From an uncultured Spirochaetota bacterium (lineage in GTDB: Bacteria; Spirochaetota; Spirochaetia; SZUA-6; Fen-1364), in the NCBI GenBank assembly GCA_963781885.1, contig CAWAHW010000007.1, forward strand, positions 448,001-512,000: a DNA stretch of 64,000 nucleotides, written 5' to 3'. The notes below the pieces were generated by a model. That model was not told where the DNA came from. It made no database searches and saw nothing but the letters and a program-made list of their open reading frames with translations. Every line of letters starts with the position of its first letter. The stretch's first letter is position 1. Both the position numbers and the translations under genes were made by a program. Positions 9,080-37,318 of this stretch are shown here, one piece after another.

Positions 9080-10501
9080 ATGGAAATGAAGTCGATCACA
9101 AAGGCATGCCTGTTCGTCGCCGCCGCGGCGCTTCTCATCCTTGCCGGCTGCAGCGGGTCTGGCGCGCCGTCGGGCGGAAGCCCCGGCGCGGTGTCAGGCG
9201 CCGGCGGGCAGTCGGCAGCAGCGACACGCCCAGCAGCGGGCGCTTTCGGCGGCGGCCAGAGCGGAGGCAGGCGCTTTGCGACGATACCCGTGCAGGCGGT
9301 TATCGTCCAGTCGGGGCCGCTCGTCACGGACAATGACACGGCCGGCGTCGTGACCGCCGTGACACAGAGCCAGGTCGCCGCACAGGTTGCAGGCGTTGTC
9401 GCGAAGGTGTTCCACAAGCAGGGTGATCGGGTCAACGCAGGCGAGCCCGTGGCGCAAATCGACGATTCCACCTTCAAGCTCTCGGTGCGCAATGCCCAGT
9501 CCGCGTTGGACAGCGCAAACATCAACCTGGCGATAGGAGAACAGACTGCCACGGGAAACGGTCCAAAGCTCCAATCCCAGCTGGAGTCGGCGAAAAATTC
9601 CCTCGATTCCGCGCAGAAGAACTACGATTCCCAGAAGGCGCAGTACGATCTGGGAGGTATTTCAGCCTCGGCTCTGGACAATGCCAAGAGCCAGCTCAGC
9701 CAGGCGCAGGCAAACGTGCAGGCGGCCCAGCTCGCCTTTGACCAGAACGATCAGGCGGCGACGGAGAGTGTCGCGCAGTTGAAGCTCGCCGTCGACCAGG
9801 CGACCAACGCCCTGGAAATGGCGAAACTCAATCTCCAGAACGTATCCATTCGCGCCCCCTTCGACGGACAGCTGGCGAACGTCAATGTGACTCCCGGATC
9901 CTATCTGAGCCTGAACTCGCCGGCGTTCCTCCTCGTGAGCACGAACAAGCAGATCGACTTCTCCGAGCCCCCCGCGGACGCCCCCGGCTTCAAGATAGGG
10001 GATTCCGTGACCTTCACATTCGCGGGGAAGAGCTACCCGGTTCGTATTACCCAGACCCCTGCCGCGCCGATCAACGGCGTCGTGCCGATGACGGCTTCCG
10101 TGCCCGCGGGGATCCCCGTTTCCTACGGCACCGTCGGTACGATCGTCTACAAGCTCACAATCGGGGACGGTCCCCAGATACCGCTGAGCGCCCTGCAGAG
10201 CCGGGCGGATATCAACTTCGTTTATACAATCCAGAACGGCAAGGCTGTCGAGGTTCCCGTGATCATCATCGCCGAGGCGGGCACCACGGCCGTGGTGCGG
10301 GGACTGAATGCGGGAGACCAGGTGGTCCTCAACCCGCCGCCGGGCCTGCTCAGTGGTTCCACCGTGCAGGTGGTGGCGGCGCCGCAGGCGGCGGCTCCCG
10401 CGGCCGTTCCGCAAGGTCAGAAGACCGGGCAAGCCGGCGGCACTGGCGGCGCGCGGCCTCCCGGCGCCACCGGGAAGTCCACAGGGGGAGGAACCCCATG
10501 A
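9080..10501 (+). CDS. RND efflux periplasmic adaptor (MFP) lipoprotein
   Basis: Lipobox LAGC; lipoyl half-motifs VAAQVAGVV..GDRVNAGE and IRAPFDGQL; long coiled coil; GLNAGDQVV. Confidence 0.9.
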   Translation: MEMKSITKACLFVAAAALLILAGCSGSGAPSGGSPGAVSGAGGQSAAATRPAAGAFGGGQSGGRRFATIPVQAVIVQSGPLVTDNDTAGVVTAVTQSQVAAQVAGVVAKVFHKQGDRVNAGEPVAQIDDSTFKLSVRNAQSALDSANINLAIGEQTATGNGPKLQSQLESAKNSLDSAQKNYDSQKAQYDLGGISASALDNAKSQLSQAQANVQAAQLAFDQNDQAATESVAQLKLAVDQATNALEMAKLNLQNVSIRAPFDGQLANVNVTPGSYLSLNSPAFLLVSTNKQIDFSEPPADAPGFKIGDSVTFTFAGKSYPVRITQTPAAPINGVVPMTASVPAGIPVSYGTVGTIVYKLTIGDGPQIPLSALQSRADINFVYTIQNGKAVEVPVIIIAEAGTTAVVRGLNAGDQVVLNPPPGLLSGSTVQVVAAPQAAAPAAVPQGQKTGQAGGTGGARPPGATGKSTGGGTP

Positions 10502-23953: not shown

Positions 23954-25831
23954 TCAGTCCGCGGCCATCACCACCCGGAATCCCTGGTCTTCGTCTTCCG
24001 TGGTCACGGGCTTGAACTGCGAGTAGCCCGCCATGAAGAACTTCGGCTTGGACAGGCGCCAGGACCCGCCGGCAGAAGCGGCAAGGTCGGTCGTCCCGTC
24101 GGCCGCCTTCCTCTGGTCGGAACACCATTCGCTCACGTTGCCCGCCATATTCTTCACCCCGTCGAGGGTGATGTCATTGAAGAACGTGAGCTCCTGCACG
24201 GGGCCGTTCTGGCCCTCGATGGGAAGCATGTCGTCCGCGGTGGAATCGGCGCACTGGCAGTACGTCGAGTCCCAGTCATTGCCCCACGGATAGTCTGTCT
24301 GGTAGTGCGCGCCGGCTGCCCAGCGCCATTGTGCCAGGGTGGGGAGGGTGACATTCACCTTGAACTTCTTGGAGAACCATTCCGTGTACGCTACGCAGTC
24401 GTCCCAGGTGACGTGGATGACGGGGTAATAACCGTAGGCGGTCCTGTAATAGCGTTCCCAGCTCCCCTGGGATTTGTAGCCGGACTGCCTCACGAAGTTT
24501 GCGAACTGATCGAAGCGCACCTCCGTCATGCCCGCCCAGAAGCTCGGGGTCTGGCCGCTTCCCTTGACGAACACAAAAGGCACATCGCCGATCTGCTGGT
24601 TGTCCTGCTCGGGCCTGTTGATCACCATATTCGCCACGCGTGTGCGTGCGCCGTTCTGCACGGCGAACTCCTTTTCGAAGACCCCGTATTTATGGGTGAT
24701 CACGATGCGATGGGTCCCCGCCGGCAGGTCATTCAGCACGAGGGTCTGCCCCGTGGCGATGCTGCCGCTTGCAACGCCATCCAGCTCAACGGTTCCTTCC
24801 ACGTTGGAATAGACCTGCGCCGATCCGCTGCCGGGAGCGCTCGGCGTCCCCGCCGGGGGCGCCTCGATGCGCGTCGTGGTGTCGATGCTCGCGCTGTACG
24901 TGGAGAGGGCGAGGTCCCCGAATGCCTCCCCGTTGTAGCTCACCGAGGGCGACTGGTCGAGCTGCTGCTCATGCGCGTAGCTGGTGACCTGCTGCTCAAC
25001 GAAATCCGACAGCTCCTTGAACGTCACGATGCCGTCGCTGTTGCCCATCTGGTAGTCGGCCTTCCCCTTCATTCCTTCCAGGAGGAACTTCGTAAAGATG
25101 CCGTGGGTGGAGTTGGGATCGTCGAAGCTCGACCAACCCGTCTTGGTGGCATAGAAGACCGCCGACACGCTCGACTGCTCGAACTTCTGCGCCCGCAGGG
25201 CCGCGTCGTTGATGCCGCGGCTTGCGCCCCGGGGAAGCGATTCGCGGCATGCATCCAGGAGGAGGAGCGATTTGCGCACCTTCAGCTTCGTGATCCAGTC
25301 CAGCACCTCCTTGATCGGGAGGCTCGTGTTCCACTTGTCGTCCTTGAGCGTGTCGGCGACGATGAGGTAGCCGTCGCCCGTCTCCTCCGTCGCGATGCCG
25401 TGACCGGCGAAGGAGAATATCACGAGGTCATTGGGGCCTATCGTTTTCGCCATGGCGGCAAGCTTCGCGCGGATGTTCGCGAGGCTCGGGTAAGAGTGGC
25501 CCTTGTCGAAGGCGGGGTCCACGTCGTCCGTCATCTTTTCCACGACGTCGAACTGACCGTACTTCTTCAGCGTATCGGCAAGCTCCGTGGCATCGGCGCG
25601 CGCCCCCTTGAGGGCAGGGATCGTCGTGTCCTGGAAATTGTTGACGCCGATGCACAGGGCATAGCGCTTGCCGGCATTGCCCGGCGTGCCCTCGATGCTT
25701 CCGCCGGCCTTCACCAGCATCAGGCCCCTGCTGCCTGCCTGGGCGCCGAGAATGACGAGCACCGCGAGAGGAAGCAGGGCGATTGCGAGCCCCCGTCGTC
25801 TCCCTTTTTTCCGTTCACGCGGTGCATCCAT
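23954..25831 (-). CDS. Exported caspase-family (peptidase C14) protease with PEGA and FGE-sulfatase (CLec-fold) domains
   Basis: Signal or anchor LAIALLPLAVLVILGAQA; YALCIGVNNF, FSFAGHG (His), LLLLDACRE (Cys), HGIFTKFLLEGMKG; PEGA VYSNVEG.VELDG..LPAGTHRI; FGE PVIHVTWDDC, LPTLAQW, MAGNVSEW, GGSW, GFRVV. Confidence 0.88.
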   Translation of the reverse strand: MDAPRERKKGRRRGLAIALLPLAVLVILGAQAGSRGLMLVKAGGSIEGTPGNAGKRYALCIGVNNFQDTTIPALKGARADATELADTLKKYGQFDVVEKMTDDVDPAFDKGHSYPSLANIRAKLAAMAKTIGPNDLVIFSFAGHGIATEETGDGYLIVADTLKDDKWNTSLPIKEVLDWITKLKVRKSLLLLDACRESLPRGASRGINDAALRAQKFEQSSVSAVFYATKTGWSSFDDPNSTHGIFTKFLLEGMKGKADYQMGNSDGIVTFKELSDFVEQQVTSYAHEQQLDQSPSVSYNGEAFGDLALSTYSASIDTTTRIEAPPAGTPSAPGSGSAQVYSNVEGTVELDGVASGSIATGQTLVLNDLPAGTHRIVITHKYGVFEKEFAVQNGARTRVANMVINRPEQDNQQIGDVPFVFVKGSGQTPSFWAGMTEVRFDQFANFVRQSGYKSQGSWERYYRTAYGYYPVIHVTWDDCVAYTEWFSKKFKVNVTLPTLAQWRWAAGAHYQTDYPWGNDWDSTYCQCADSTADDMLPIEGQNGPVQELTFFNDITLDGVKNMAGNVSEWCSDQRKAADGTTDLAASAGGSWRLSKPKFFMAGYSQFKPVTTEDEDQGFRVVMAAD

Positions 25832-25832
25832 G

Positions 25833-28568
25833 TCAGAATCCGATCGCGTACCCGACGCTGACCGTCAGGCTCCAGCTCCCCATATAGGAGCTCTCGTTGA
25901 AGTAGTCCAGACCCAGCGACAACCCGTCTTTTTTCTTCGCGTTGAGGAAGACCATGCTCCCGCCCAATGTGACGCCGCTTCCGTATCCGACGTCGACGGT
26001 GTAGAGGAGGCTGCCGCGGGACGGGTTCCCGAACATCAGGTCGAGCGTCACGGCCCCGCCACCGGAGCTACTGGAGCTTCCGTCGAGGTAGTCAATAAAG
26101 GCGCCCGCCCCTACTCCGAACCCGGGAAGGAAATGCCAGTAAAGCTGCGCGGCGCCGGCGAGCGCAAAGACGGTGCTGCTGGAGTAGCTGTGGGAGGAGT
26201 AGCTGTACGTTTCCGTGCTGCCCGCGCCAAGGCCTGCCGCGAGATTCAGGAAGAACGCCGCGCCGCCCGTGGACGCCACTGCCGCAGTCTTGGGCCGTTG
26301 CCCGGAGGCTCCTTGGCCGGCAAGATTCGGGAAAGCCGCCTGGCCCGTCAGGTTCGTAAACGCCGCCAATTGGGCTGCGCGCGCCGCGTCCTGCCGCTGC
26401 TCGTATTCCTCCGCGCTCTGGTCTGCCAGGGCCCTGAGGTTTGCAAGGTCCACGAAGGCGATCACGTCTTTTTCCGGCACGATCTGGCTCTTGCTGAAAT
26501 CGTAGGTGAAGCCGTGCCAGGATGAATATCGATTGTCCTTGGAGTATCCCCGTGTCCAGACGGTGTAGGTGACCTGGGGATGCGCCTCCCAGTCATCCTG
26601 CGAGTATTCGCTCGCGATCGTGATCTTTTCCTTGTCGGCCCAGTGGAACTCATCCGTCGTGAGCGACCCGTCGTCGACGTCGATGTCCCCCGCGTATCCG
26701 AAGCCCGGCTTCAGGATGAGAGTCACCTTGGTCGTTTTCGGCGATAGGATCTGTTGTTTCTCCTGCAGCCCGAAGTCGGCGATCTGGATCTTCACATCCT
26801 TGGGATCGCGGACGACCACCGGCAGGGGCTTGCTTTTCACGGTGAGCTTCGTCGAGGTGTACCAGATGCCCGTGATTCCGCTCAAGCCTTCGGGAGGATT
26901 GCGCGTGGCGGTGATGTCGTAGGCGGAAAGGGGGACGCCGCTGATGAGAATGTCCTGCGTCTCGTAACGGTACTCCGCGTGCACCGATCCGGAGTTTTCC
27001 GTCCCGTTGTCTCCCGGTGTCTTTCCCATTTCCCAGGTCGCCGTGCCATTGTCGAACGTGACGGTAAAGGAAGGCTCGGGCATGGGAGGATCGAATATTT
27101 CCCACCAATACTGCTCATTCTGCTTTCTCGGTATCGCCGCGAAGGTGTACGAGGTCGTCGGACCGATGCCGCCGATGGTGATGCTTCCGTTGGGCGTTTC
27201 GATATGATCCCGCAGGACGACGATGTTCTTTACGTCGCCCGCATTGATGGTGAACGGAATCTCCTTGATCTGCTGCGTGCTCCTGTTGTAGACGGAGATG
27301 ACGTACTGGCCCGGGAGCGTCCAATAGAAGACGTCGGGATTCACCTTGCGCTTGTCGGAATTGTCCGAGTCCCCGACGGTGTTGTCGTCTTTTTCCACCT
27401 GGCGCGGCTGCCAGAAGAGGTAGTAGTGTCCGTTCGCATAGGACAGGTCTGGCTGCCCATTGCTGCCGGCATCGCCGGTTCCCGCGCCGCCCGCGCCCGC
27501 GACATCGGGGCTTTCAGTGATGGTCAGCTGCGCGCAGTGGGCGTTCAATATGTCGATCATGATGTGCTGGCATATCTGGGCACAGGCGACCGGAAGGTCG
27601 TGAAGGTCCTTGTCGACAATGGCCGAGTACGAGTAGACCTCTTCGGCCCGTTTCGTGTTGAGCACGCGCACGTTGAAGCCTATCGCGTCCCGGGGGCTGC
27701 CCGGACTTGCTTCCTTGTGCTGGAGCAAGCTGTCGGCAGGAGATGCGTTCTGCGGCGAGTCGGAGCCGGTTTCATAGACATTGCCCAGCACGAGAAAATC
27801 GAGGTCCGCGAAATTAAACGCCCCGACCGCTTTCGTATAGAGGTCCTTCACCGTGAATGTGCCGTTTTGCAGCGCATTTTCGACGTATTTCTTGTCAAAT
27901 ATCTTGAAGATGGACGGGAAATAGAGGCGCGCGATCTGCCCCCCCGCGATGCGCGCGAGCTCCTGAGCCCCCTGCAGGGTTACGGCCACCTCGTTCGCCG
28001 CTTTCACCGCATCCTGCATGGCCAGCTTCTGCTTTTCAAGCCATGACTGCTGGAGCGCCTGGGCTGACTGCTGGGCCGATTTCGCCTTCGCCTGCCGATC
28101 CCGCGCATCGTCCTTTGCACTGGACGTGGTGGCTTTTGCCAGGTCGTCCGATGCGGCCTTGAAGTCATCAGTCGCCTTTGCGTAGTCGTCCGACGCCTCG
28201 GCGTACCCGAGGCCGGCATTCTTGTAGTCCGCGGCTGCCTTTGTGTAATCCCCGGCGGCAACGGCTTTCGGGTCTTTCGGGAAGGTGAAGGTCATGCCGG
28301 GCTCGTACACCGGCGCTCCGGGGACGATGTGGCTGTCCTTCATCGTGTAGACTACGTTCGCGGCATTCTGCTGGACCAGCACCGACAGGAGGGCCTGGCT
28401 GATGAGCTGTCCATAGAACTGCTTGCTCGGCGCCCTGTCCGCTGCGCTCATGGAGACCTCGAAGTCCGCCACGGCGAGCGTCGGCGGATCCAGGTAGGTG
28501 TAGTCGCGGGCGAACGCCGCTCCCGTGAACAGGAAACACGCTGCGGCAATAAGAAGTGCACGCTTCAT
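25833..28568 (-). CDS. Large exported protein: CsgG/TolB-N-like domain with coiled-coil insert, beta-rich middle and probable C-terminal outer-membrane beta-barrel
   Basis: AGGAGG SD; signal peptide ending AFA; PTLAVADFE..ISQALLSVL..DLDFLVLGNV..FNVRVLNTKRAEEV; alternating strands ending SLTVSVGYAIGF. Confidence 0.65.
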   Translation of the reverse strand: MKRALLIAAACFLFTGAAFARDYTYLDPPTLAVADFEVSMSAADRAPSKQFYGQLISQALLSVLVQQNAANVVYTMKDSHIVPGAPVYEPGMTFTFPKDPKAVAAGDYTKAAADYKNAGLGYAEASDDYAKATDDFKAASDDLAKATTSSAKDDARDRQAKAKSAQQSAQALQQSWLEKQKLAMQDAVKAANEVAVTLQGAQELARIAGGQIARLYFPSIFKIFDKKYVENALQNGTFTVKDLYTKAVGAFNFADLDFLVLGNVYETGSDSPQNASPADSLLQHKEASPGSPRDAIGFNVRVLNTKRAEEVYSYSAIVDKDLHDLPVACAQICQHIMIDILNAHCAQLTITESPDVAGAGGAGTGDAGSNGQPDLSYANGHYYLFWQPRQVEKDDNTVGDSDNSDKRKVNPDVFYWTLPGQYVISVYNRSTQQIKEIPFTINAGDVKNIVVLRDHIETPNGSITIGGIGPTTSYTFAAIPRKQNEQYWWEIFDPPMPEPSFTVTFDNGTATWEMGKTPGDNGTENSGSVHAEYRYETQDILISGVPLSAYDITATRNPPEGLSGITGIWYTSTKLTVKSKPLPVVVRDPKDVKIQIADFGLQEKQQILSPKTTKVTLILKPGFGYAGDIDVDDGSLTTDEFHWADKEKITIASEYSQDDWEAHPQVTYTVWTRGYSKDNRYSSWHGFTYDFSKSQIVPEKDVIAFVDLANLRALADQSAEEYEQRQDAARAAQLAAFTNLTGQAAFPNLAGQGASGQRPKTAAVASTGGAAFFLNLAAGLGAGSTETYSYSSHSYSSSTVFALAGAAQLYWHFLPGFGVGAGAFIDYLDGSSSSSGGGAVTLDLMFGNPSRGSLLYTVDVGYGSGVTLGGSMVFLNAKKKDGLSLGLDYFNESSYMGSWSLTVSVGYAIGF

Positions 28569-28586
28569 GGCTGGTACCTCCTGCAC

Positions 28587-30977
28587 CTACTTGAGCGGGA
28601 AATCCTGCTTGAACTCATAATCCCCACTGTTGACGTTCACCACGGACACTTGGAGTGAATCCGGATCCGACGCCACCAGGGGGAAGTAACGCGCGATGGG
28701 AGACTTGGAGGGTGGCTGGATGTAGGCCGAAGATGGCACAGCCGTCTCCAGCAATGAGAAATAGATGATCTTGTCGACTCCATAGTACGACTTCAAGGTC
28801 GTGATTGTCGCGGCAGGCGCAACGGGCGCAGCAGGCGCTGCCGCCGCAGCCCCGGCCGTTGTCGCCGATCCCGCGGCGGGAGCCGCGGCAGGCGCAGCGG
28901 GCGTCACGGGTGGAGGGGCCATCGAAATCCACTTGGAGATCAGGAGAGGCGACAGATAGAGCATTTCCTCCGTGTCCGCGTCCGTATTCGCCGCCTTGGG
29001 GTTCGCCAGACGCACCGATTTCAGGATCAGGTAGCGCGAGTACAACGATTCCATCTTTTCATTCGGCGCCGCGTCACCCGCGACGAGCGCCGTGCACAGC
29101 CCGTCCTCGAACCACGTCTGCATCAGGTTGATCGCGACGGTCAGGTTGAGCTCCTGGGTCGGAGTCAAGGTGTCCTCCGCCTTTTTCTTGCCGCCGAATC
29201 CCATCTTCGACCAGAACGACGGGGGCACTTTGGGAATGGGCTCACCGAACGTGCGCAGGACCTCGTAGGCGTCGAAGTAGCTCATCATGAGCGCCTGCTG
29301 GTCGCTGCCCGGCGGGATCCTGTTGAGGATGAAGTCCTCTGCGGACGGCTTTTCATTCCCCGGTGTCTGACCTGCCGTGATGTCGCTGATGTAGTTGTTG
29401 GCGATCTCCATGCGGCGATTGATGAGGGCGGTATGGGTTGTGTCGGTGACGACGCCCGCGCTCCGCAACGCATCCGCGAGCCCCGTGAACGACCGTGTGC
29501 GCGCGAAGCAGCGATAGAGCACGCTCTGATCCAGCTCCGCATCCGTGCCGAGCGTGAGGAAATCGCTGAGCACGACACGGCCGTTGTCGGCCATGTCGAT
29601 GATCTTGATGTAGATACCCAGAATCTTGCCGCTCAGCTCCAGGTCCTTTTCCCCCTGGAGGAGCTGCACGCCCTGGATCTTCTTCCACAGCACCCGGTAG
29701 CCGATCATGTACTGCGCGCCGTAGTAGTTCTTGAACTGCGTATAGTCTCCGCCGAGGACGGGGTTGATGTAGTGCACGGCGTGTGCAAGCTGCCAGGGCT
29801 GCTTGTACTGCCGGGGGAAGAGCTTGTCGACGATTGTGACGGTCTGGGTGGAGGAAAGCTGGAATGACCCGAAGAAGCCTTCCAGCGCGTTCTCCACCGC
29901 GAAGTCCTCCCTCGTGATGGGATACGATCCAAAGATCGGGATGTCGTCGATTTTCATGAGCACGGCTGTCATCGAGCGCACACCCTGGTCCCGAAGGGAA
30001 CGGACGAAGGCGTCTTTCTGGGCGCTGACGGCCTGCGGCGGGATGGTGAGCCGAAGGGTGCCGAGGAAGGGAGTCTTTTCCTTCGGGAACTTGTCCGAGA
30101 GCAGGCTCTTTGTTCCGCTCCACAGGATCTTTCCGCCCCGCGCGATATCGATGAGACGGAAGCTCACCTGGATGCCGACGTAATCCATCATGCCCATGGC
30201 GACAACGTTGTTGATCGAATACATCAGAAGCTTCGAGATCTTGTTCGGATCGTAGGTCTTCTGGACGTTGCTCCACGTGCTGAAATTGATCATGTCGGTG
30301 CCGAAAACCAGTCTGCCCGCGAGCAGATCCTTCAAGCTCTTCTGCGATTCATCCGGAACGTCCTTCAGGTCCATGGCGGGGGTCACCAGGCGTTCGAAGC
30401 CCTTCCCCTGCTTCTTGAGCACGGCGCTGAGAAGGCCGCTTTCGAACGAGTCAATGAAATAGGGGTTGGCCTTGACAAATTCGTTCAGGGAAAAATTGCC
30501 GAGCCCTGAATACCCGGCGCCCGCGAGCGTGCGCCCCAGGAGGAGCTCGTCGTACTTGTCTCCGCTGGTCTTCAGCTTATAGACCTTCTTGCCGCTGTCC
30601 AGAGAGAACAGGTCGCTGAGTATCTTCACCTCGGGAATGGGGCCGTTGGGGCTCGTCTCCCGGGGCTTGAACAGCTTCTGGACGTTGGGCTGGATGATTC
30701 CTTCGAAGTCCTCCTGCTTCACCTCCAGCGGGGTCGGCACGAAACGCCACGCGTCGGCTCCGTAGAACGCGGGCATGTTGGCGAGCAGGATGCGGTCTCC
30801 CCGCTCCACGAATTGATCGACAATCGGCTGCAGCGCGTCCTGGGCCAGCTTGTAGACGTCGGAGTTGTTGATGGCTTCGAGCTTCGACGGCTCCGGGGGC
30901 GTCGACTTGCAGCCGACGAAGACTGCGAAGACGCAGAGCACGACGGCGGGAACGGCGACACGGCGGCCTGTTCGCAT
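28587..30977 (-). CDS. Lipoprotein with three tandem CsgG/LpoB-like domains
   Basis: AAGGAGG SD; lipobox FAVFVG-C; three units ending VSFRLIDIARGGKILWS, IYIKIIDMADNGRVVLS and VSVVNVNSGDYEF. Confidence 0.65.
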   Translation of the reverse strand: MRTGRRVAVPAVVLCVFAVFVGCKSTPPEPSKLEAINNSDVYKLAQDALQPIVDQFVERGDRILLANMPAFYGADAWRFVPTPLEVKQEDFEGIIQPNVQKLFKPRETSPNGPIPEVKILSDLFSLDSGKKVYKLKTSGDKYDELLLGRTLAGAGYSGLGNFSLNEFVKANPYFIDSFESGLLSAVLKKQGKGFERLVTPAMDLKDVPDESQKSLKDLLAGRLVFGTDMINFSTWSNVQKTYDPNKISKLLMYSINNVVAMGMMDYVGIQVSFRLIDIARGGKILWSGTKSLLSDKFPKEKTPFLGTLRLTIPPQAVSAQKDAFVRSLRDQGVRSMTAVLMKIDDIPIFGSYPITREDFAVENALEGFFGSFQLSSTQTVTIVDKLFPRQYKQPWQLAHAVHYINPVLGGDYTQFKNYYGAQYMIGYRVLWKKIQGVQLLQGEKDLELSGKILGIYIKIIDMADNGRVVLSDFLTLGTDAELDQSVLYRCFARTRSFTGLADALRSAGVVTDTTHTALINRRMEIANNYISDITAGQTPGNEKPSAEDFILNRIPPGSDQQALMMSYFDAYEVLRTFGEPIPKVPPSFWSKMGFGGKKKAEDTLTPTQELNLTVAINLMQTWFEDGLCTALVAGDAAPNEKMESLYSRYLILKSVRLANPKAANTDADTEEMLYLSPLLISKWISMAPPPVTPAAPAAAPAAGSATTAGAAAAAPAAPVAPAATITTLKSYYGVDKIIYFSLLETAVPSSAYIQPPSKSPIARYFPLVASDPDSLQVSVVNVNSGDYEFKQDFPLK

Positions 30978-31190
30978 GACACCCTCCTTGGCTCCCTCGA
31001 GATTCATTCCATGGACGAGGGGAAAGAGAACAATACTGTCAGGCGCCGATCCGGTGACGTGTCATTGTCTGAGTGAGGACGGAGCGGGACCCGATGGACC
31101 GCTCCCTGTGCATTCTCATTGACACTTCACCAATCGACTGCTGCTGAATAACCTGACCGTACCACCCCGTGACGGCCTCGTCAAGGCGTC

Positions 31191-33212
31191 TTAGGGGGGC
31201 ACGATCACTTCCCAGGTGTCGAAGTCTTCCGAGATGCCTTTTGCCGTGATGCGGCCCGCGAAACGGGTGCTCACCGCCTCTTTCACCGCGTCGTAGACCG
31301 GCGCGCTCACCAGGACGCCGTCCACGGGAGCCTTGCTTTCCAGCCGTGAGCCGAGGTTCACGTTCGCGCCGATGGCGGTATAGGCCATGATGCGGCGCGA
31401 GCCCATGTCCCCGACGACCGCCTCGCCCGTATTGATGCCAATGCGGATGTGGAGCTGCGCCCGCCCCTCCGCCTCCCAGCGCTCCCGCAGACCCCGCAGG
31501 GCTTGCTGCATCTCGATGCCGGTCCGCACGGCGCGCAGCGCGTGGTCGCTCTGGGGGAGCGGATCGCCGAAGAATGCCATGAGTCCGTCGCCGATGAACT
31601 TGTCCACCGTGCCTTCGTGGCGGAAAACGATCTCCGTCATCACCTCGAAATACTCGTTGAGCGTGCGGTGGATCGCATCCGGCGTCTGGGTGGTTGACCA
31701 GGAGGTGAAACCCGAGATGTCGCTGAACAGCACCGTGATCACCTTCTGGTCCGCCGTCATGAGCCTGTCCTGGCTGGCGAGGATCTTCGTCATGAGCTTG
31801 GGGGCGAAATAGCGCTCCATGCGCAGCCGGAAGGCGAGCTTCTCCCTCTCCGAGAGGAGGAACCGGTACGCGTTTACTGCGATCAGGAGCAGCACCACGC
31901 CGAGGGTGGGCGCCGCGAGCGTCGGCATGATGCCGCCCGCCGCGAAGAGCCAGAACTCCGCCGCGACGAGGGCCGCCCAGGCGAGCAGGCAGAGCAGCGA
32001 GCAGGCAAGCGGGCGCAGGCGCCACGCGAAAAACCAGACCAGCGCGGCAAACGCCGCGTTCAGGATGAGCACCATCCACCACGCGGGGGCGCGCAGGAAG
32101 CGATCCGAGAGAATGCTGTTGAGGACGTTCAGGTGGAGGCCCGCCTTCGGGTAGACCTGCTCGAATGGGGTCGGACCGTAGTCGGCGCCGCTCGTCGTGA
32201 TGTCGGCGACAAGGACATGCGCGCTGTCCATCACGGACGCCGCCTGGTCGGCCACGTCGGGGTCGTTCTCCGCCTGCAGGAGACCGGCGAACGAAGACCG
32301 CGCGAAACCTGCGCCCCAGGGTCCTGCAAAATCGACGATCATGCGGCCGTTGCGGTCTATGGGTATCGATACGTCCCGCGTGGTGCCGTCCGGCATCTTC
32401 GCCCCCGGCAGGCGGAGAGTGGCGCCGAAGGAGACCTCGATCGTCGACGGGTCCACCTGGAGGGCGTCCGTCGCCGCCGCCAGCGCGAGGCTCGGCATGT
32501 AGCCGTCCCCGTAGCGAATGAGAAGGGGCATGCGCCGGTAGACACCGTCGGGGTCGGGCTCGCTGTCGTAATGCGCGATGCCGCGCGCGGCGGCCGTCAG
32601 GGCGGCAAAGCTCACGGTCGACGAGCGCGCGGTGAGGGGACTGCCGGCGCGGAGGATTTTCGGGTGCCACAGCCACCGCGCCAGAGGATCGGGGCCCGTC
32701 GGCGCCGGTGCGGCGAGCTTGTCGTATGCAAGCGGCGGAAGGAGGGCCGGAAGGATCACGTTCCCCGCCCCGGCGACCGCCGCGACGAACGCCGCGTCCC
32801 CGTCCGGCAGTCCCTGCTCGGGGAAGTCGATGTCGAAGATGATCGAGGAGGCACCGGCGGTGGAGAGCACCCTCACGAGCTGGGCGAAGTCGCGGCGGTC
32901 GCCGGTTTTCATCCCGAGCGTGCGCAGCTCGGAATCGCTCAGGTCGACGTGGTTGATGGAGGGGGCGATCTTCTCCGTTCCCCGAAGACGGTAGCGGAGC
33001 TGGAAGAAAAGGTCGTTGAGACGGTTGTTCCAGTCGCCGCGAATGCCGGCCGCCGCAAGCGACAGCACCCAGGCGAGGCCGAGACAGAGCGCGACGATGA
33101 GGGCGAAGGTGAGCCCGGTCCGGCGATCAGTGCTCGAGCCGGAAGATCTTGCTGTAGTACCCCGCGGCGTCGATGCGGGTTGCGAGCTTTGCGATTGCGT
33201 CGTTGATGCCAC
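31191..33212 (-). CDS. CHASE2-domain class III adenylate cyclase
   Basis: CHASE2 motifs IIFDIDF, PDPDGVYRRMPL, PSLALAAA, IPIDRNGRMIVDF; three TM helices; VLFSDISGFT, DKFIGDGLMAFFG, RIGINTG, YTAIGANVNLGSRLE (Lys and Thr specificity residues point to ATP). Confidence 0.92.
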   Translation of the reverse strand: MASTTQSQSSQPASTPRGTTARSSGSSTDRRTGLTFALIVALCLGLAWVLSLAAAGIRGDWNNRLNDLFFQLRYRLRGTEKIAPSINHVDLSDSELRTLGMKTGDRRDFAQLVRVLSTAGASSIIFDIDFPEQGLPDGDAAFVAAVAGAGNVILPALLPPLAYDKLAAPAPTGPDPLARWLWHPKILRAGSPLTARSSTVSFAALTAAARGIAHYDSEPDPDGVYRRMPLLIRYGDGYMPSLALAAATDALQVDPSTIEVSFGATLRLPGAKMPDGTTRDVSIPIDRNGRMIVDFAGPWGAGFARSSFAGLLQAENDPDVADQAASVMDSAHVLVADITTSGADYGPTPFEQVYPKAGLHLNVLNSILSDRFLRAPAWWMVLILNAAFAALVWFFAWRLRPLACSLLCLLAWAALVAAEFWLFAAGGIMPTLAAPTLGVVLLLIAVNAYRFLLSEREKLAFRLRMERYFAPKLMTKILASQDRLMTADQKVITVLFSDISGFTSWSTTQTPDAIHRTLNEYFEVMTEIVFRHEGTVDKFIGDGLMAFFGDPLPQSDHALRAVRTGIEMQQALRGLRERWEAEGRAQLHIRIGINTGEAVVGDMGSRRIMAYTAIGANVNLGSRLESKAPVDGVLVSAPVYDAVKEAVSTRFAGRITAKGISEDFDTWEVIVPP

Positions 33213-33777
33213 GCGTTCCTCCCGCGATGGTCACCGGCTTTTCCGCCGCCGCGGCGAGCGCGCTGTGCTGCTGGTTGAGGCGCTTGATCTCGTCCAGCAC
33301 CGCCTGCCGGGCGGCGGCTTTCGCCGCGGCCGTCGATCCCTGATTCGAAGCGGTTTTCTGGAGCGTCGTGAGGAGCGACTCCAGCGTCCGCAGCCGCTCG
33401 GACGACGCCACCAGGTAGAAACGCTCGGTGCCTTTTGCGCTGTCGAGCGTGAACCAGTCATCCCCCTCGGGGATGAAATAGCGGCTCTGGGCGTAGGATG
33501 CCTTGCCGAACAGGTCGAAGGAGTCGGGGAAGAGAAGCTGCGTGTCGTCGCTCGCGTCTTGGAGAATGAGATAGACGAACGACGAGGCGGCCGGGGCGAT
33601 GTGGATCTTGAAAAGGTCTCCCGGCTTGATGTTGACCTTCTCCGAGAAGTTGATGGGGACCGCGGAGCCGTCCGCGGCGCGCTTGACGAATGCCCAGGTG
33701 AAGGAAAGCTTCGCTTCCTGTGCGGCAATCCCCGCCGCGACGAGAAGCAGGAGGAGGACGGCCGTCGTTCTTCTCAT
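33127..33777 (-). CDS. DUF4384-like exported protein
   Basis: Signal peptide; GDLFKIHI...FVYLILQD...LLFP...YFIP...FTLD..KGTERFYLVAS pattern. Confidence 0.78.
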   Translation of the reverse strand: MRRTTAVLLLLLVAAGIAAQEAKLSFTWAFVKRAADGSAVPINFSEKVNIKPGDLFKIHIAPAASSFVYLILQDASDDTQLLFPDSFDLFGKASYAQSRYFIPEGDDWFTLDSAKGTERFYLVASSERLRTLESLLTTLQKTASNQGSTAAAKAAARQAVLDEIKRLNQQHSALAAAAEKPVTIAGGTRGINDAIAKLATRIDAAGYYSKIFRLEH

Positions 33778-33786
33778 GGCGCCATC

Positions 33787-34377
33787 TTACTCCTCTCCCG
33801 GAGGGGACGCAAGCGGAGACGGGAAAAAGAACAGGAGCCCCAGATCAAATCCGAGGGTATAGTAGATCGTGTCGGACTGGAGAGAATAGTACAGGTTGAA
33901 GGTGGGTCCCACGCTGAAGGAAACGGAGGGGTTCAGCCTCAGCGCGAGCCCGGCATTGAGCTCGGTCCAGAAGCCGGGAACGGAAGAATCCGAGGTTGAC
34001 TGTCCCGACGACGACGATCCCTGGAAACTGAGCTCCACCGCCGTGGTGTCGCGGAGAAATGGCATGGCGTCCCCGAAGGAAAAATACATGCCTGCCTGGA
34101 AACCGGGAGAGACGTCGAGGTACCAGCTGCCGTTCTGCGTGGCGTTGTTTTGCGTGCTCGAGTAGGTGACCGAAATATACGGGCCTATTTCGAACAGGCG
34201 GCTCGTGAAGAATCCGCCCCAGCCGTACAGGCTGAAGCTGCTGGTCGGCGCGGCGCTGGAGAGGGGTATGCTTGCCCACCCGCCCGTGCCGCCCTGGATG
34301 ATTCCCCCGCCGCTTTCCTGCGCGCCGGCGAGCATCGGGATGGCGAAGATGATGACCGTAAGGGCGAAGCGCTTCAT
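33787..34377 (-). CDS. Small outer-membrane beta-barrel protein
   Basis: AAGGAG SD; signal peptide ending AGA; about eight amphipathic Gly/aromatic strands, last YTLGFDLGLLFFF. Confidence 0.65.
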   Translation of the reverse strand: MKRFALTVIIFAIPMLAGAQESGGGIIQGGTGGWASIPLSSAAPTSSFSLYGWGGFFTSRLFEIGPYISVTYSSTQNNATQNGSWYLDVSPGFQAGMYFSFGDAMPFLRDTTAVELSFQGSSSSGQSTSDSSVPGFWTELNAGLALRLNPSVSFSVGPTFNLYYSLQSDTIYYTLGFDLGLLFFFPSPLASPPGEE

Positions 34378-34522
34378 AGGCACTCCTTCTCGGACGCGGA
34401 TTCGTCTTTCACTCGTTCGACGGGACGGTGCATCCCGATCGTACATCAACCGCCCGGCTTTCCGCAACACGCGGGGGATGCAACGTGGACGAGACTGTCC
34501 CGGTCATATATGCTCCCCGCTG

Positions 34523-35592: not shown

Positions 35593-36048
35593 ATGCCAAG
35601 AAACAGAATCGACGCAAACGTCCGCTGCCCATCATGTAACGGTCAACTATTTCCAAGGGTACTGGTCTGCGATTCGTGTGGGCTCAAGGTCGAAGGGGAG
35701 TTCATCATGAACGAGTTCGGGTCTCTCACTCCCGACGAGCTGCACTTCCTGCGCGTCTTCATCTACTGTGAGGGAAGGATCCGCGACATGGAGGCCGCGC
35801 TCGGCGTGAGCTACCCCACCGTGAAAGGACACTTGGCCACCATCAAGCAGAAGCTCAACCTTGCGCCGCATCCGGGTCGGCCCGCCGCACCTGCCGCAAG
35901 TGATGCCGCGCAGGGAGGCGGGGCAGAGATGAGCGACGAGCAGGTCCTCGACGGGCTGGAATCCGGGCAGGTCAGCTACAAGGATGCGCTCAGCCTTCTG
36001 CGGTCAAGGAAAAAAGGAGAAAAGGCCGATGAGCAGCAAGGCAGCTGA
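35593..36048 (+). CDS. DUF2089-family zinc-ribbon/HTH protein with SHOCT-like tail
   Basis: CPSC...CDSC..VEGEF; FLRVFIYCEGRIRDMEAALGVSYPTVK; VLDGLESGQVSYKDALSLL. Confidence 0.88.
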   Translation: MPRNRIDANVRCPSCNGQLFPRVLVCDSCGLKVEGEFIMNEFGSLTPDELHFLRVFIYCEGRIRDMEAALGVSYPTVKGHLATIKQKLNLAPHPGRPAAPAASDAAQGGGAEMSDEQVLDGLESGQVSYKDALSLLRSRKKGEKADEQQGS

Positions 36049-37318
36049 CAGGATTCGCGCGATGCAGGAGAAAGGCATCCTCACCCCGGCGCAGGCCGAA
36101 GAGCTCCTGAAGGCGCTGGAGGGAAGCGATGAGGAACCGGGTGCCCCCGCGTCATCGGAGCCGCTCGAGCCGCCACCAGGCGCTTCCGCGCACGCCGACG
36201 CGGAATCGGACAGCAAGTGGGACGACGACGAAGAAAGAGTGCGCGGGCGCGGCCGGCATCGTCGGCAGCGGCCTTTTCTCCCGGACGGCCTCCTGGAGAT
36301 GGACTGGGTGAATGACATGGTGGACGGCATCACCAGCGGGCTCGGCGTCCACGTCCAGGACAAGGTGCGGGGGGCGACAGGCGACGACTGGAGCGAAGGC
36401 TGGGGCGGGCACTGGACGGCGAACGGGCAGAACTCGTCGCGCATCGAGCAGCCCGAAGGGGAGCAGTACGAGTTTCGCGGCAACCGCGTGGTCTTCAGCA
36501 GGCTGACCGGCATGCACCTGGTGCGGTCCAAGGTCAAGGACAACTCGTTCTCCGCCTCCACGTTCAAGGACATCGAGCTCGTGGACAGCACGATGCAGGA
36601 CTGCGCGCTCGCCGGCGCCTCCCTGCACGAGCTGCGGATGGAGCATGCGGAGCTGAAGGACGTGTCCGTGTCGGGCTCAAAGACCAACCGGATCAGCCTT
36701 CAGGATTCCACCACGGTGAAGGGGCTGCGCATTTCAGGGTCCCGGGTCAACGGCATGACCCTGCAGGAAAACTGCAGCATCCACGATACCCGATTCTCCG
36801 GGGCCGTCATCACGGCGCTTACTCTCATCCGGTCGTCGAGGATGAAGGACGTGCGCCTCACCGGCGCGACGGTCAACAGGCTCTCGCTGGAAGGGGCGTC
36901 CATGGACAATGTTCGGGCGCAGGGATCGGTCCTGGAGAGCTCGCACATCACCGATTCCCAGCTTCAGGACACCGACCTTCGCGGCACCCGTTTCCGGGAC
37001 GCCGAGATCACCGCCTCCAAGATCAAGGACTGCCGCTTCGATGCGATCGCCTTTGACGGGCTGAAGATCGCGAGCAGCACGCTGCGCAAGGTGAGCTTTC
37101 GCGACGCCAACTACAAGATGTACAGCAATCTCCGCGCACAGGCGGAGAAGCTTTCGATCATCGACTGCGACCTGGACGAGATTGACTTTTCCGAATGCAC
37201 GATCCGCAACACGACGATCCAGGGCATCAAGGTGCACGGATTGCGGATTCGCGGGGCGGACCTGTCTGGAATGACGATTGCCCGTGTCGAGGACCTGGAG
37301 GCCCTTGGACGAAGATAG
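36029..37318 (+). CDS. SHOCT-like N-terminus plus pentapeptide-repeat beta-helix protein
   Basis: RIRAMQEKGILTPAQAEELLKAL; long run of 5-residue repeats (STFKD IELVD STMQD CALAG ASLHE ... ADLSG MTI). Confidence 0.8.
   Translation: MSSKAADRIRAMQEKGILTPAQAEELLKALEGSDEEPGAPASSEPLEPPPGASAHADAESDSKWDDDEERVRGRGRHRRQRPFLPDGLLEMDWVNDMVDGITSGLGVHVQDKVRGATGDDWSEGWGGHWTANGQNSSRIEQPEGEQYEFRGNRVVFSRLTGMHLVRSKVKDNSFSASTFKDIELVDSTMQDCALAGASLHELRMEHAELKDVSVSGSKTNRISLQDSTTVKGLRISGSRVNGMTLQENCSIHDTRFSGAVITALTLIRSSRMKDVRLTGATVNRLSLEGASMDNVRAQGSVLESSHITDSQLQDTDLRGTRFRDAEITASKIKDCRFDAIAFDGLKIASSTLRKVSFRDANYKMYSNLRAQAEKLSIIDCDLDEIDFSECTIRNTTIQGIKVHGLRIRGADLSGMTIARVEDLEALGRR

Follow-up and report, generated by a model that had tools for sequence, protein, structure and literature searches.

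CHASE2 is a widespread sensor domain of bacteria for which, to our knowledge, almost no signals have been found, and we know of no substrate of an exported bacterial caspase. In an uncultured Spirochaetota bacterium (assembly GCA_963781885.1, contig CAWAHW010000007.1), genes for a CHASE2 adenylate cyclase and for an exported caspase occur in one run of six genes, which raises the question of whether protease and receptor serve a single path from the cell envelope to cyclic AMP (cAMP). The window, as we call the whole stretch of 64,000 nucleotides that was analysed (positions 448,001 to 512,000 of the contig), had been read in an earlier note, made from the sequence alone, as carrying one six-gene caspase-cAMP system. 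All six open reading frames (ORFs) do lie on the minus strand, within 23954-34470 of the window and at the coordinates given in that note, and its junction lengths agree with the sequence: in transcription order they are 9 nt, an overlap, 183-213 nt, 18 nt and 1 nt. These genes are not, however, kept together as one block. We found instead two conserved modules that lie side by side: module A, consisting of a DUF4384 protein and a CHASE2 receptor, and module B, consisting of two proteins of new families, named p806 and p917 here, and a caspase with an FGE-fold domain. The remaining gene, for a small exported protein, is a conserved member of neither.

A DUF4384 protein paired with CHASE2 receptors

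The exported DUF4384 protein of module A (216 aa; 33127..33777, minus strand) matched PF14326 with E 1e-8 and 35.6 bits, the cut-off being 27. The subfamily to which it belongs, for which 105 homologous clusters were found, shares a C-terminal motif (EKPVTIAGGTRG ... FRLEH), and residues A185, G186, R189, Y208 and H216 of the protein are kept in at least 90% of the rows of the subfamily alignment. The ORF of the receptor, a class III adenylate cyclase of 673 aa (31191..33212, minus strand), overlaps the end of the DUF4384 gene. It matched CHASE2 (PF05226) with E 1.2e-36 and 127.1 bits, and Guanylate_cyc (PF00211) with E 3.2e-24 and 86 bits. Hydropathy places its transmembrane segments at residues 36-54, 377-395, 406-424 and 428-446, with a periplasmic stretch at 55-376, which puts the CHASE2 domain on the outer side of the membrane and the cyclase domain on the inner side. 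The catalytic residues of the cyclase, described as intact in the earlier note, are present: FSD(498), K538, GD(542)G, T612, N619 and R623 are all kept, and K538, N619 and R623 are invariant in the alignment. We take D498 and D542 to be the metal-binding residues, K538 and T612 to contact the substrate, and N619 and R623 to act on the transition state. The Lys/Thr pair is typical of adenylate cyclases among class III enzymes.

We searched 401 Spirochaetota genomes with a profile of the DUF4384 subfamily, and 16 of them matched at E up to 1e-10, with 27 listed matches. The 15 matches that covered the whole profile or shared a locus with one that did were kept, giving 13 loci in 9 genomes of 7 families; the 12 partial matches, which covered the DUF4384 domain only, were left out. 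Adjacency was counted from this profile and not from a Pfam DUF4384 search of the same genomes, because the Pfam family takes in other architectures. A CHASE2 gene adjoins the subfamily member at 13/13 loci, on the same strand in 12 of them and mostly overlapping it. At one locus (G117:C252; L028, 1349-4073) the CHASE2 partner ends in a histidine-kinase ATPase domain in place of a cyclase, so that the DUF4384 partner tracks the sensor domain and not the output. That this subfamily is a dedicated partner of CHASE2 is among the best-supported conclusions of our analysis. A complex prediction with the CHASE2 periplasmic domain (55-376) and the DUF4384 protein (21-216) scored 0.07 against a mark of 0.32 and weighs neither for nor against the pairing.

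Some further occurrences of these domains were seen outside the 13 loci. A partial DUF4384 match at L056 adjoins CHASE2 fragments, and a 517-aa frame at C4:490010 of the source genome contains that genome's second DUF4384 match. None of the remaining three CHASE2 loci of the source genome has a DUF4384, C14 or FecR neighbour. One CHASE2 match of this genome (G000:C6:232888-233917) extends over two overlapping frames, which cover profile positions 3-157 and 149-254; a frameshift or a faulty assembly may lie behind the split.

A lipoprotein, a barrel-ended protein and an exported caspase

Module B comprises the lipoprotein p806 (28587..30977), the exported protein p917 (25833..28568, within an ORF at 25833-28586 of 917 aa) and the exported caspase (625 aa; 23954..25831), all on the minus strand. 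The p806 ORF spans 28587-31007 and encodes 806 aa; we assign the protein a length of 796 aa because AGGAGG stands 6 nt ahead of the ATG at 30977, and 796 aa is also the length of its database copy. At 90% identity, p806 and p917 form 25 and 23 clusters among 5.8 billion proteins, and every source label given for these clusters is Spirochaetes or a Spirochaetia metagenome-assembled genome. A search of 1.84 billion proteins with the p806 profile gave 26 representatives at E up to 0.001, of which 17 were at E up to 1e-30. Among 40 relatives, strong p806 matches were confined to 3/20 congeneric genomes and a single one from another family. A further match, in G006 (1.7e-4, residues 664-734), falls in the Ala/Pro-rich linker and was dismissed as low complexity.

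The gene for p917 follows that for p806 in 9/9 loci with a visible downstream side, and of the module B loci that allowed a caspase-FGE gene to be seen, 8/8 had one. In these counts L072, which looks like a second copy of L025, was taken together with it as one. The caspase once lies upstream, at L073 (1-3590), where a divergent module B with a p806 of 32% identity has the caspase gene directly before p806. Thus p806, p917 and the caspase-FGE protein make up a strict trio, which is rare and seen only in Spirochaetia.

Neither p806 nor p917 matched any Pfam or NCBIfam family at E up to 0.1, nor did they match PF03783, PF13036 or PF05643 in sequence (the CsgG, LpoB, PelC and GNA1162-type families); look-alikes in the atlas scored below 0.9 and serve as leads only. 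Family alignments of 24 and 25 members were the input for AlphaFold2 models of the two proteins. The p806 model (pLDDT 72, pTM 0.75) contains two domains similar to the C-domain of LpoB, at residues 49-304 (VIA Z 9.4, root-mean-square deviation 3.4, 127 aligned) and 316-486 (VIA Z 7.1). Below LpoB came GNA1162 (Z 7.4), PelC (6.8), CT253, TolB-N, CsgG, PqiC and TraT, and a Foldseek search of the model against the PDB gave nothing at E up to 0.001, its weak matches being to the same folds. The earlier description of p806 as a lipoprotein with three CsgG/LpoB-like domains is in this way supported for two of them by the VIA comparison of the predicted model, and no third was shown. The protein has in addition a helical region, the Ala/Pro-rich linker and a small C-terminal beta domain, and its lipobox Cys33 is kept in at least 90% of the family rows.

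The model of p917 (pLDDT 74.6) starts with an alpha/beta domain at residues 30-350 that resembles the LPHT-ring chain (Z 11.7), CT253 (11.0), TolB-N (10.8), PelC (10.4) and CsgG (10.2), and into which a helical hairpin (101-216) is inserted. It is followed by immunoglobulin (Ig)-like sandwiches, and the model also has a long helix. The C-terminus (774-917) is modelled as an eight-stranded barrel like NspA (Z 11.6), OprF and OmpA (both Z 10.7), with its eight strands at 778-916 and a final Phe. Foldseek gave pilin/Ig-like matches at 1e-7 and OmpA at 1.8e-5. The barrel was found in 23/25 family rows, and the p917 homologue at G033:C132 (L019) lacks it. The fold assignments of the model bear out, in essence, what had been read from sequence, namely a CsgG-like, coiled-coil and barrel protein. 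For both proteins the likeness to CsgG, LpoB and PelC in the models points to a shared fold and not to membership in those families. A profile-profile comparison of p806 with p917 detected no homology, and a comparison of the p917 barrel with the small outer-membrane protein (OMP) of the window or the OMP of G033 gave nothing.

The caspase carries a Peptidase_C14 domain (PF00656; E 3e-22, 79.9 bits against a cut-off of 21.4) and an FGE-sulfatase domain (PF03781; E 1.3e-22) at residues 428-621. His144 (AGHG) and Cys195 (DACR), which we take to occupy the catalytic dyad positions of C14, are invariant in 7/7 aligned sequences, as the earlier reading of an intact dyad would lead one to expect, and the protein is predicted to be catalytically competent. 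R35-G36 and S204-R205-G206 are invariant in the same alignment. The match to the model for EACC1-associated caspases (NF047832) reached 71.6 bits, below the curated cut-off of 140. The domain calls made earlier for this locus thus hold for C14, FGE, CHASE2, cyclase and DUF4384, all above their cut-offs; the PEGA domain proposed for the middle of the caspase stayed below threshold (E 0.065, 13.6 bits against 20.8). Elsewhere in the source genome, two Peptidase_C14 matches lie adjacent to each other at C6:5424-7447.

Alignment of the caspase to solved FGEs spans residues 468-577 only. In 6/6 orthologues there is no Cys after the GGSW motif, at the place near the C-terminus where true FGEs have their catalytic cysteine pair. 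Because of this the FGE-fold domain is predicted to be non-catalytic and not to work as an FGE enzyme. The domain is similar to FGE folds of the binding type, for example those of TagR or PorK; its matches to GldK/PorK are weak (NCBIfam 5e-10, far below the cut-off; PorK in the PDB at 5.6e-4).

Signal peptides, lipobox and transmembrane segments were read from hydropathy and N-termini, with no predictor. The reading gave signal peptides for the caspase, p917, the DUF4384 protein and the small OMP, and bore out the view that every product of the six genes has an export signal or transmembrane segments. That p806, p917 and the caspase-FGE protein form a unit at the outer membrane is, together with the pairing of DUF4384 and CHASE2, the best supported of our conclusions. 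Within that unit the three proteins would form a complex.

One might suppose that such a unit is an assembly or surface-protein processing machine of the outer membrane, loosely like PorU/PorK of type IX secretion, with the cyclase as its regulator or merely co-regulated with it. The likeness, a clan CD cysteine protease together with an FGE fold, is one that we assume at the domain level only. The folds of p806 and p917 do match ring-forming outer-membrane lipoproteins (PelC, CsgG, TraT and the LPHT ring chain), and the weak GldK/PorK matches of the FGE domain point the same way. We give this explanation little credence, as there is no gene for cargo, polysaccharide or secretion in the neighbourhood, and the two proteins lack any match to the CsgG, LpoB and PelC families at the level of sequence.

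Possible coupling of the two modules

The CHASE2 cyclase gene lies directly upstream of p806 in 7/10 distinct loci with a visible upstream side (the window, G019, G001, L025, L069, L070 and L071), and the DUF4384 gene precedes the cyclase in 5/6 visible cases of this arrangement. At L024, a stretch at 9823-9900, between an ADP-ribosylglycohydrolase gene and p806, encodes a relic of the cyclase C-terminus (26 residues, 58% identity, tblastn 1.7e-4), which suggests that the cyclase was lost there. In genome G033, whose DUF4384-CHASE2 pair is on another contig, module B is preceded on the same strand (G033:C132; L019, 1932-4635) by genes for a 175-aa protein that binds cyclic nucleotide monophosphates (cNMPs), for a protein whose phosphodiesterase fold is of the Apyc1-like metallo-beta-lactamase (MBL) type (127 bits) and for an OMP_b-brl_2 protein, as well as by an unassigned ORF of 194 aa. 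An MBL gene is also found next to the L025 locus. BLASTP between the MBL proteins of L025 and G033, and between the window DUF4384 protein and the 194-aa protein of G033, gave nothing.

Caspases were found in the fetched flanks of 3/13 module A loci, and they differ from one another. Besides that of the window, there is one of 345 aa at G174:C83, and an exported, beta-propeller-like one of more than 725 aa at G117:C147; neither of these has an FGE domain. In all, three unrelated caspase architectures adjoin the DUF4384-CHASE2 pair. DUF4384 domains also meet caspases in other settings. At L044 (G099:C102, 311-1834) a single frame of 508 aa combines the domain with a caspase in a fusion, and partial DUF4384 matches at L048 and L058, in two other Spirochaetota genomes, adjoin a caspase. 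The link of caspase, DUF4384 and CHASE2 that had been proposed for the window therefore recurs; the relay built upon it, from an outer-membrane scaffold to the caspase, the DUF4384 protein and CHASE2, is without direct support. Adjacency, the cyclase relic, the cNMP genes of G033, the three caspase architectures and the association of DUF4384 with proteases make a coupling of the modules plausible, and we put the chance that module B feeds the receptor pair, by proteolysis or by binding, slightly above even.

Several observations weigh against coupling and suit an explanation in which the modules are functionally independent, a self-contained cAMP sensor and a separate proteolytic or structural complex of the outer membrane that are merely adjacent in one lineage. 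Ten of the 13 module A loci have no caspase in the fetched flanks, which implies that the pair generally needs no neighbouring caspase. Seven of these ten have at least 5 kb on both sides and the other three are on contigs too short to tell; the flanks were searched with two caspase queries at E up to 1e-4, by which divergent caspases could be missed, and C14 genes occur somewhere in all 5/5 genomes tested. Module B has no adjoining module A in 3/10 loci, and no short DUF4384-CHASE2 pair was found anywhere in the assembly of one genome, G441. In the window the two modules are parted by a gap (30978..31190, minus strand) of 213 nt to the ATG preceded by a ribosome-binding site, or 183 nt to the first ATG of the p806 ORF, which we read as the boundary between them; a simple scan of it for promoters and terminators found no consensus of either. 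Finally, all cases of adjacency are in related genomes, and since the seven adjacent loci come from related Spirochaetia, their order may be one ancestral arrangement and not the outcome of repeated selection. Independence would nevertheless leave aside the three unrelated caspase architectures beside module A, the cyclase relic in L024, the cNMP-binding and phosphodiesterase-fold genes beside module B in G033, and the repeated fusion or adjacency of DUF4384 domains to caspases, and we regard it as somewhat unlikely.

The reading that we favour, though at rather less than even confidence, is that the two modules together make up an envelope-to-cAMP signalling unit in which a tethered caspase acts on the receptor pair. 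The periplasmic DUF4384 protein would be a co-sensor of the CHASE2 adenylate cyclase. At the outer membrane, the lipoprotein p806, the barrel-anchored p917 and the exported caspase would be associated in a complex, with the FGE-fold domain of the caspase serving binding and not catalysis. Upon an envelope or surface cue, the tethered caspase would act on the DUF4384-CHASE2 pair, most likely by cleaving the DUF4384 protein at the conserved Arg189 motif or close to it; direct contact of the FGE-like domain with the receptor pair may play a part as well. The changed synthesis of cAMP would then be read by the many cNMP-binding proteins of the genome, which has 22 cNMP-binding matches along with 7 Peptidase_C14 and 6 FecR matches; no cNMP-binding gene is within the 64-kb window. 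Communication from module B to module A, its proteolytic nature and the direction of its effect on cAMP are inferences of ours.

The most specific form of this proposal, that the outer-membrane-tethered caspase complex is a proteolytic input device for CHASE2 that cuts the DUF4384 co-receptor at the Arg189 motif, appears rather unlikely to us. The sole lead to such a cut is the conserved Arg189, which lies in the motif IAGGTRG and resembles the invariant SRG sites of the caspase. Motifs of the form [ST]-R-G do recur here, as R35-G36 and S204-R205-G206 in the caspase and as the nearly invariant T188-R189-G190 in the DUF4384 protein, and they may be self-processing and substrate sites or may be alike by chance. 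Telling against the cut, the Arg189 motif is also kept at loci without a nearby caspase, and for that reason it may be a contact with CHASE2 in place of a cut site.

Coupling could also come about with no cut in a substrate. In the H1 type VI secretion system of Pseudomonas aeruginosa, the lipoprotein TagQ and the FGE-fold protein TagR form a complex on membrane damage, which was modelled to bind the periplasmic domain of PpkA via the FGE domain (PMC13713981, as given in the passages of that report). Following this precedent, p806 and p917 would hold or release the exported caspase protein, whose FGE fold would bind CHASE2 or the DUF4384 protein, while the caspase would process itself only. 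The absence of the enzyme's cysteines from the FGE-fold domain fits such a role, as do the invariant R35-G36 and S204-R205-G206, which could be self-processing sites, and bacterial Ser/Thr kinases of one family end in either an FGE-sulfatase or a DUF4384 domain, as far as the sources describe them. We consider this course improbable, because the strictly kept His/Cys dyad of the caspase suggests a real substrate and because an FGE domain is absent from the caspases that adjoin module A at the other loci.

A cyclase next to a caspase also calls to mind conflict or cell-death systems, as in Pycsar-like or caspase-based defence, in which the cyclase would make a nucleotide alarm and the caspase would kill. 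In PADLOC the cyclase domain matches PycC (4.3e-32) and a caspase model is matched as well (1.3e-12), and the locus is patchy within the genus, judging by the three congeners with strong p806 matches. The PycC match, however, extends no further than residues 474-649, the fold common to class III cyclases. The Pycsar arrangement is that of a cytoplasmic pyrimidine cyclase with an adjacent cNMP-gated effector; here we found a CHASE2 membrane receptor with four transmembrane segments and an outward sensor, and no cNMP-gated effector in the locus. The caspase is exported and so cannot reach cytoplasmic targets. The flanks, with gltB/gltD on one side and a quinone-oxidoreductase-type gene on the other, all on the plus strand, are housekeeping genes, and phage or mobile genes are absent from the neighbourhood in the window. 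A compositional anomaly was looked for and none appeared, the GC content being 0.61-0.66 in the cluster and 0.60-0.70 around it. A role in conflict is for us scarcely credible.

The first gene of the run encodes a small exported protein of 196 aa (33787..34377, minus strand), which is probably a beta-barrel outer-membrane protein. Its only Pfam match, to the Autotransporter beta-domain, is below the cut-off (E 0.002-0.003); the ORF looks coding (GC3 0.80) and has a signal-peptide-like N-terminus. Its homologues at G005:C323 and G025:C112 adjoin no gene of the cluster, and it was not detected at G019, G001, L024 or L025. Having been counted earlier as a member of the system, it is by this evidence conserved with neither module. 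BLASTP of this protein against the OMP_b-brl_2 protein of G033 gave nothing. Just beyond the cluster (window 35593-37318) are genes for a DUF2089 zinc-ribbon/helix-turn-helix protein and a pentapeptide-repeat protein, and in G019 (L017, 14342-15784) a pentapeptide protein with a DUF2089-type SHOCT-like domain adjoins the DUF4384 gene.

Relation to known signalling systems

The closest parallels lie in CHASE2 signalling that is assisted by accessory proteins. In Sinorhizobium meliloti, the outer-membrane barrel NsrA feeds the CHASE2 cyclases CyaD1, CyaD2 and CyaK (PMC13001267). As in our proposal, the path spans the envelope, an outer-membrane protein being required for CHASE2 cyclases to raise cAMP on an external protein-type signal. 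By the passages of that report, the NsrA system lacks a caspase, a DUF4384 partner and LpoB/CsgG-like lipoproteins, all of which the window locus has. In Campylobacterota, a four-gene cluster encodes a CHASE2 adenylate cyclase, a cAMP phosphodiesterase, an outer-membrane protein with a FecR domain and a TPR protein (PMC9239204). There, too, a CHASE2 cyclase is kept with dedicated exported accessories, and the phosphodiesterase recalls the MBL genes at G033 and L025. The accessory in that cluster, as the passages present it, is a FecR protein and no protease is included, whereas the window locus has a DUF4384 accessory; our FecR search gave no match nearby, in agreement with the earlier remark that no FecR protein was to be seen at the locus.

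The TagQ/TagR/PpkA system shares with the window locus an outer-membrane lipoprotein and a periplasmic FGE fold used for protein binding, which pass an envelope-damage signal to a transducer in the inner membrane. Its output is a Ser/Thr kinase, however, TagR has no caspase domain, and neither DUF4384 nor CHASE2 figures in the published passages. The pairing of domains in the window caspase is itself on record: in a 2012 survey, 33/671 bacterial sequences had C14 fused to FGE-sulfatase, and an extracellular location was proposed for many of them (PMC3501461). These orthocaspase or metacaspase fusions have the same C14 and FGE-sulfatase combination; the passages of the survey assign them no function or partner and contain no p806, p917 or link to CHASE2. 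Fusions of caspase with CHASE2 are likewise on record, according to the sources as excerpted. The type III-E CRISPR Craspase contains a caspase-like protein, Csx29, that cuts Csx30, and in some groups Csx30 has DUF4384 as its C-terminal domain (bioRxiv 10.1101/2022.08.17.504292). Here too a clan CD protease and a protein with DUF4384 form a pair within a signalling relay, but Craspase is cytoplasmic and RNA-guided, its protease is of the CHAT family, and in the excerpts of that preprint the site shown to be cut is not the DUF4384 part.

The titles, abstracts and passages of the literature, taken without supplements, describe no DUF4384-CHASE2 pair and no cluster of this composition. What is new here is a variant of accessory-protein-assisted CHASE2 signalling, in which a DUF4384-CHASE2 pair and a caspase stand with two new protein families, p806 and p917. 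Exported caspases of three architectures join the DUF4384-CHASE2 pair, and in one spirochaete lineage they do so with these two outer-membrane-associated families. If the coupling is true, periplasmic proteolysis would control a second messenger, and the locus would offer a way to study how signals from across the envelope reach CHASE2. If the cut at Arg189 is true as well, it would be the first signal mechanism assigned to CHASE2, and for the first time an exported caspase of bacteria would have a defined physiological substrate.

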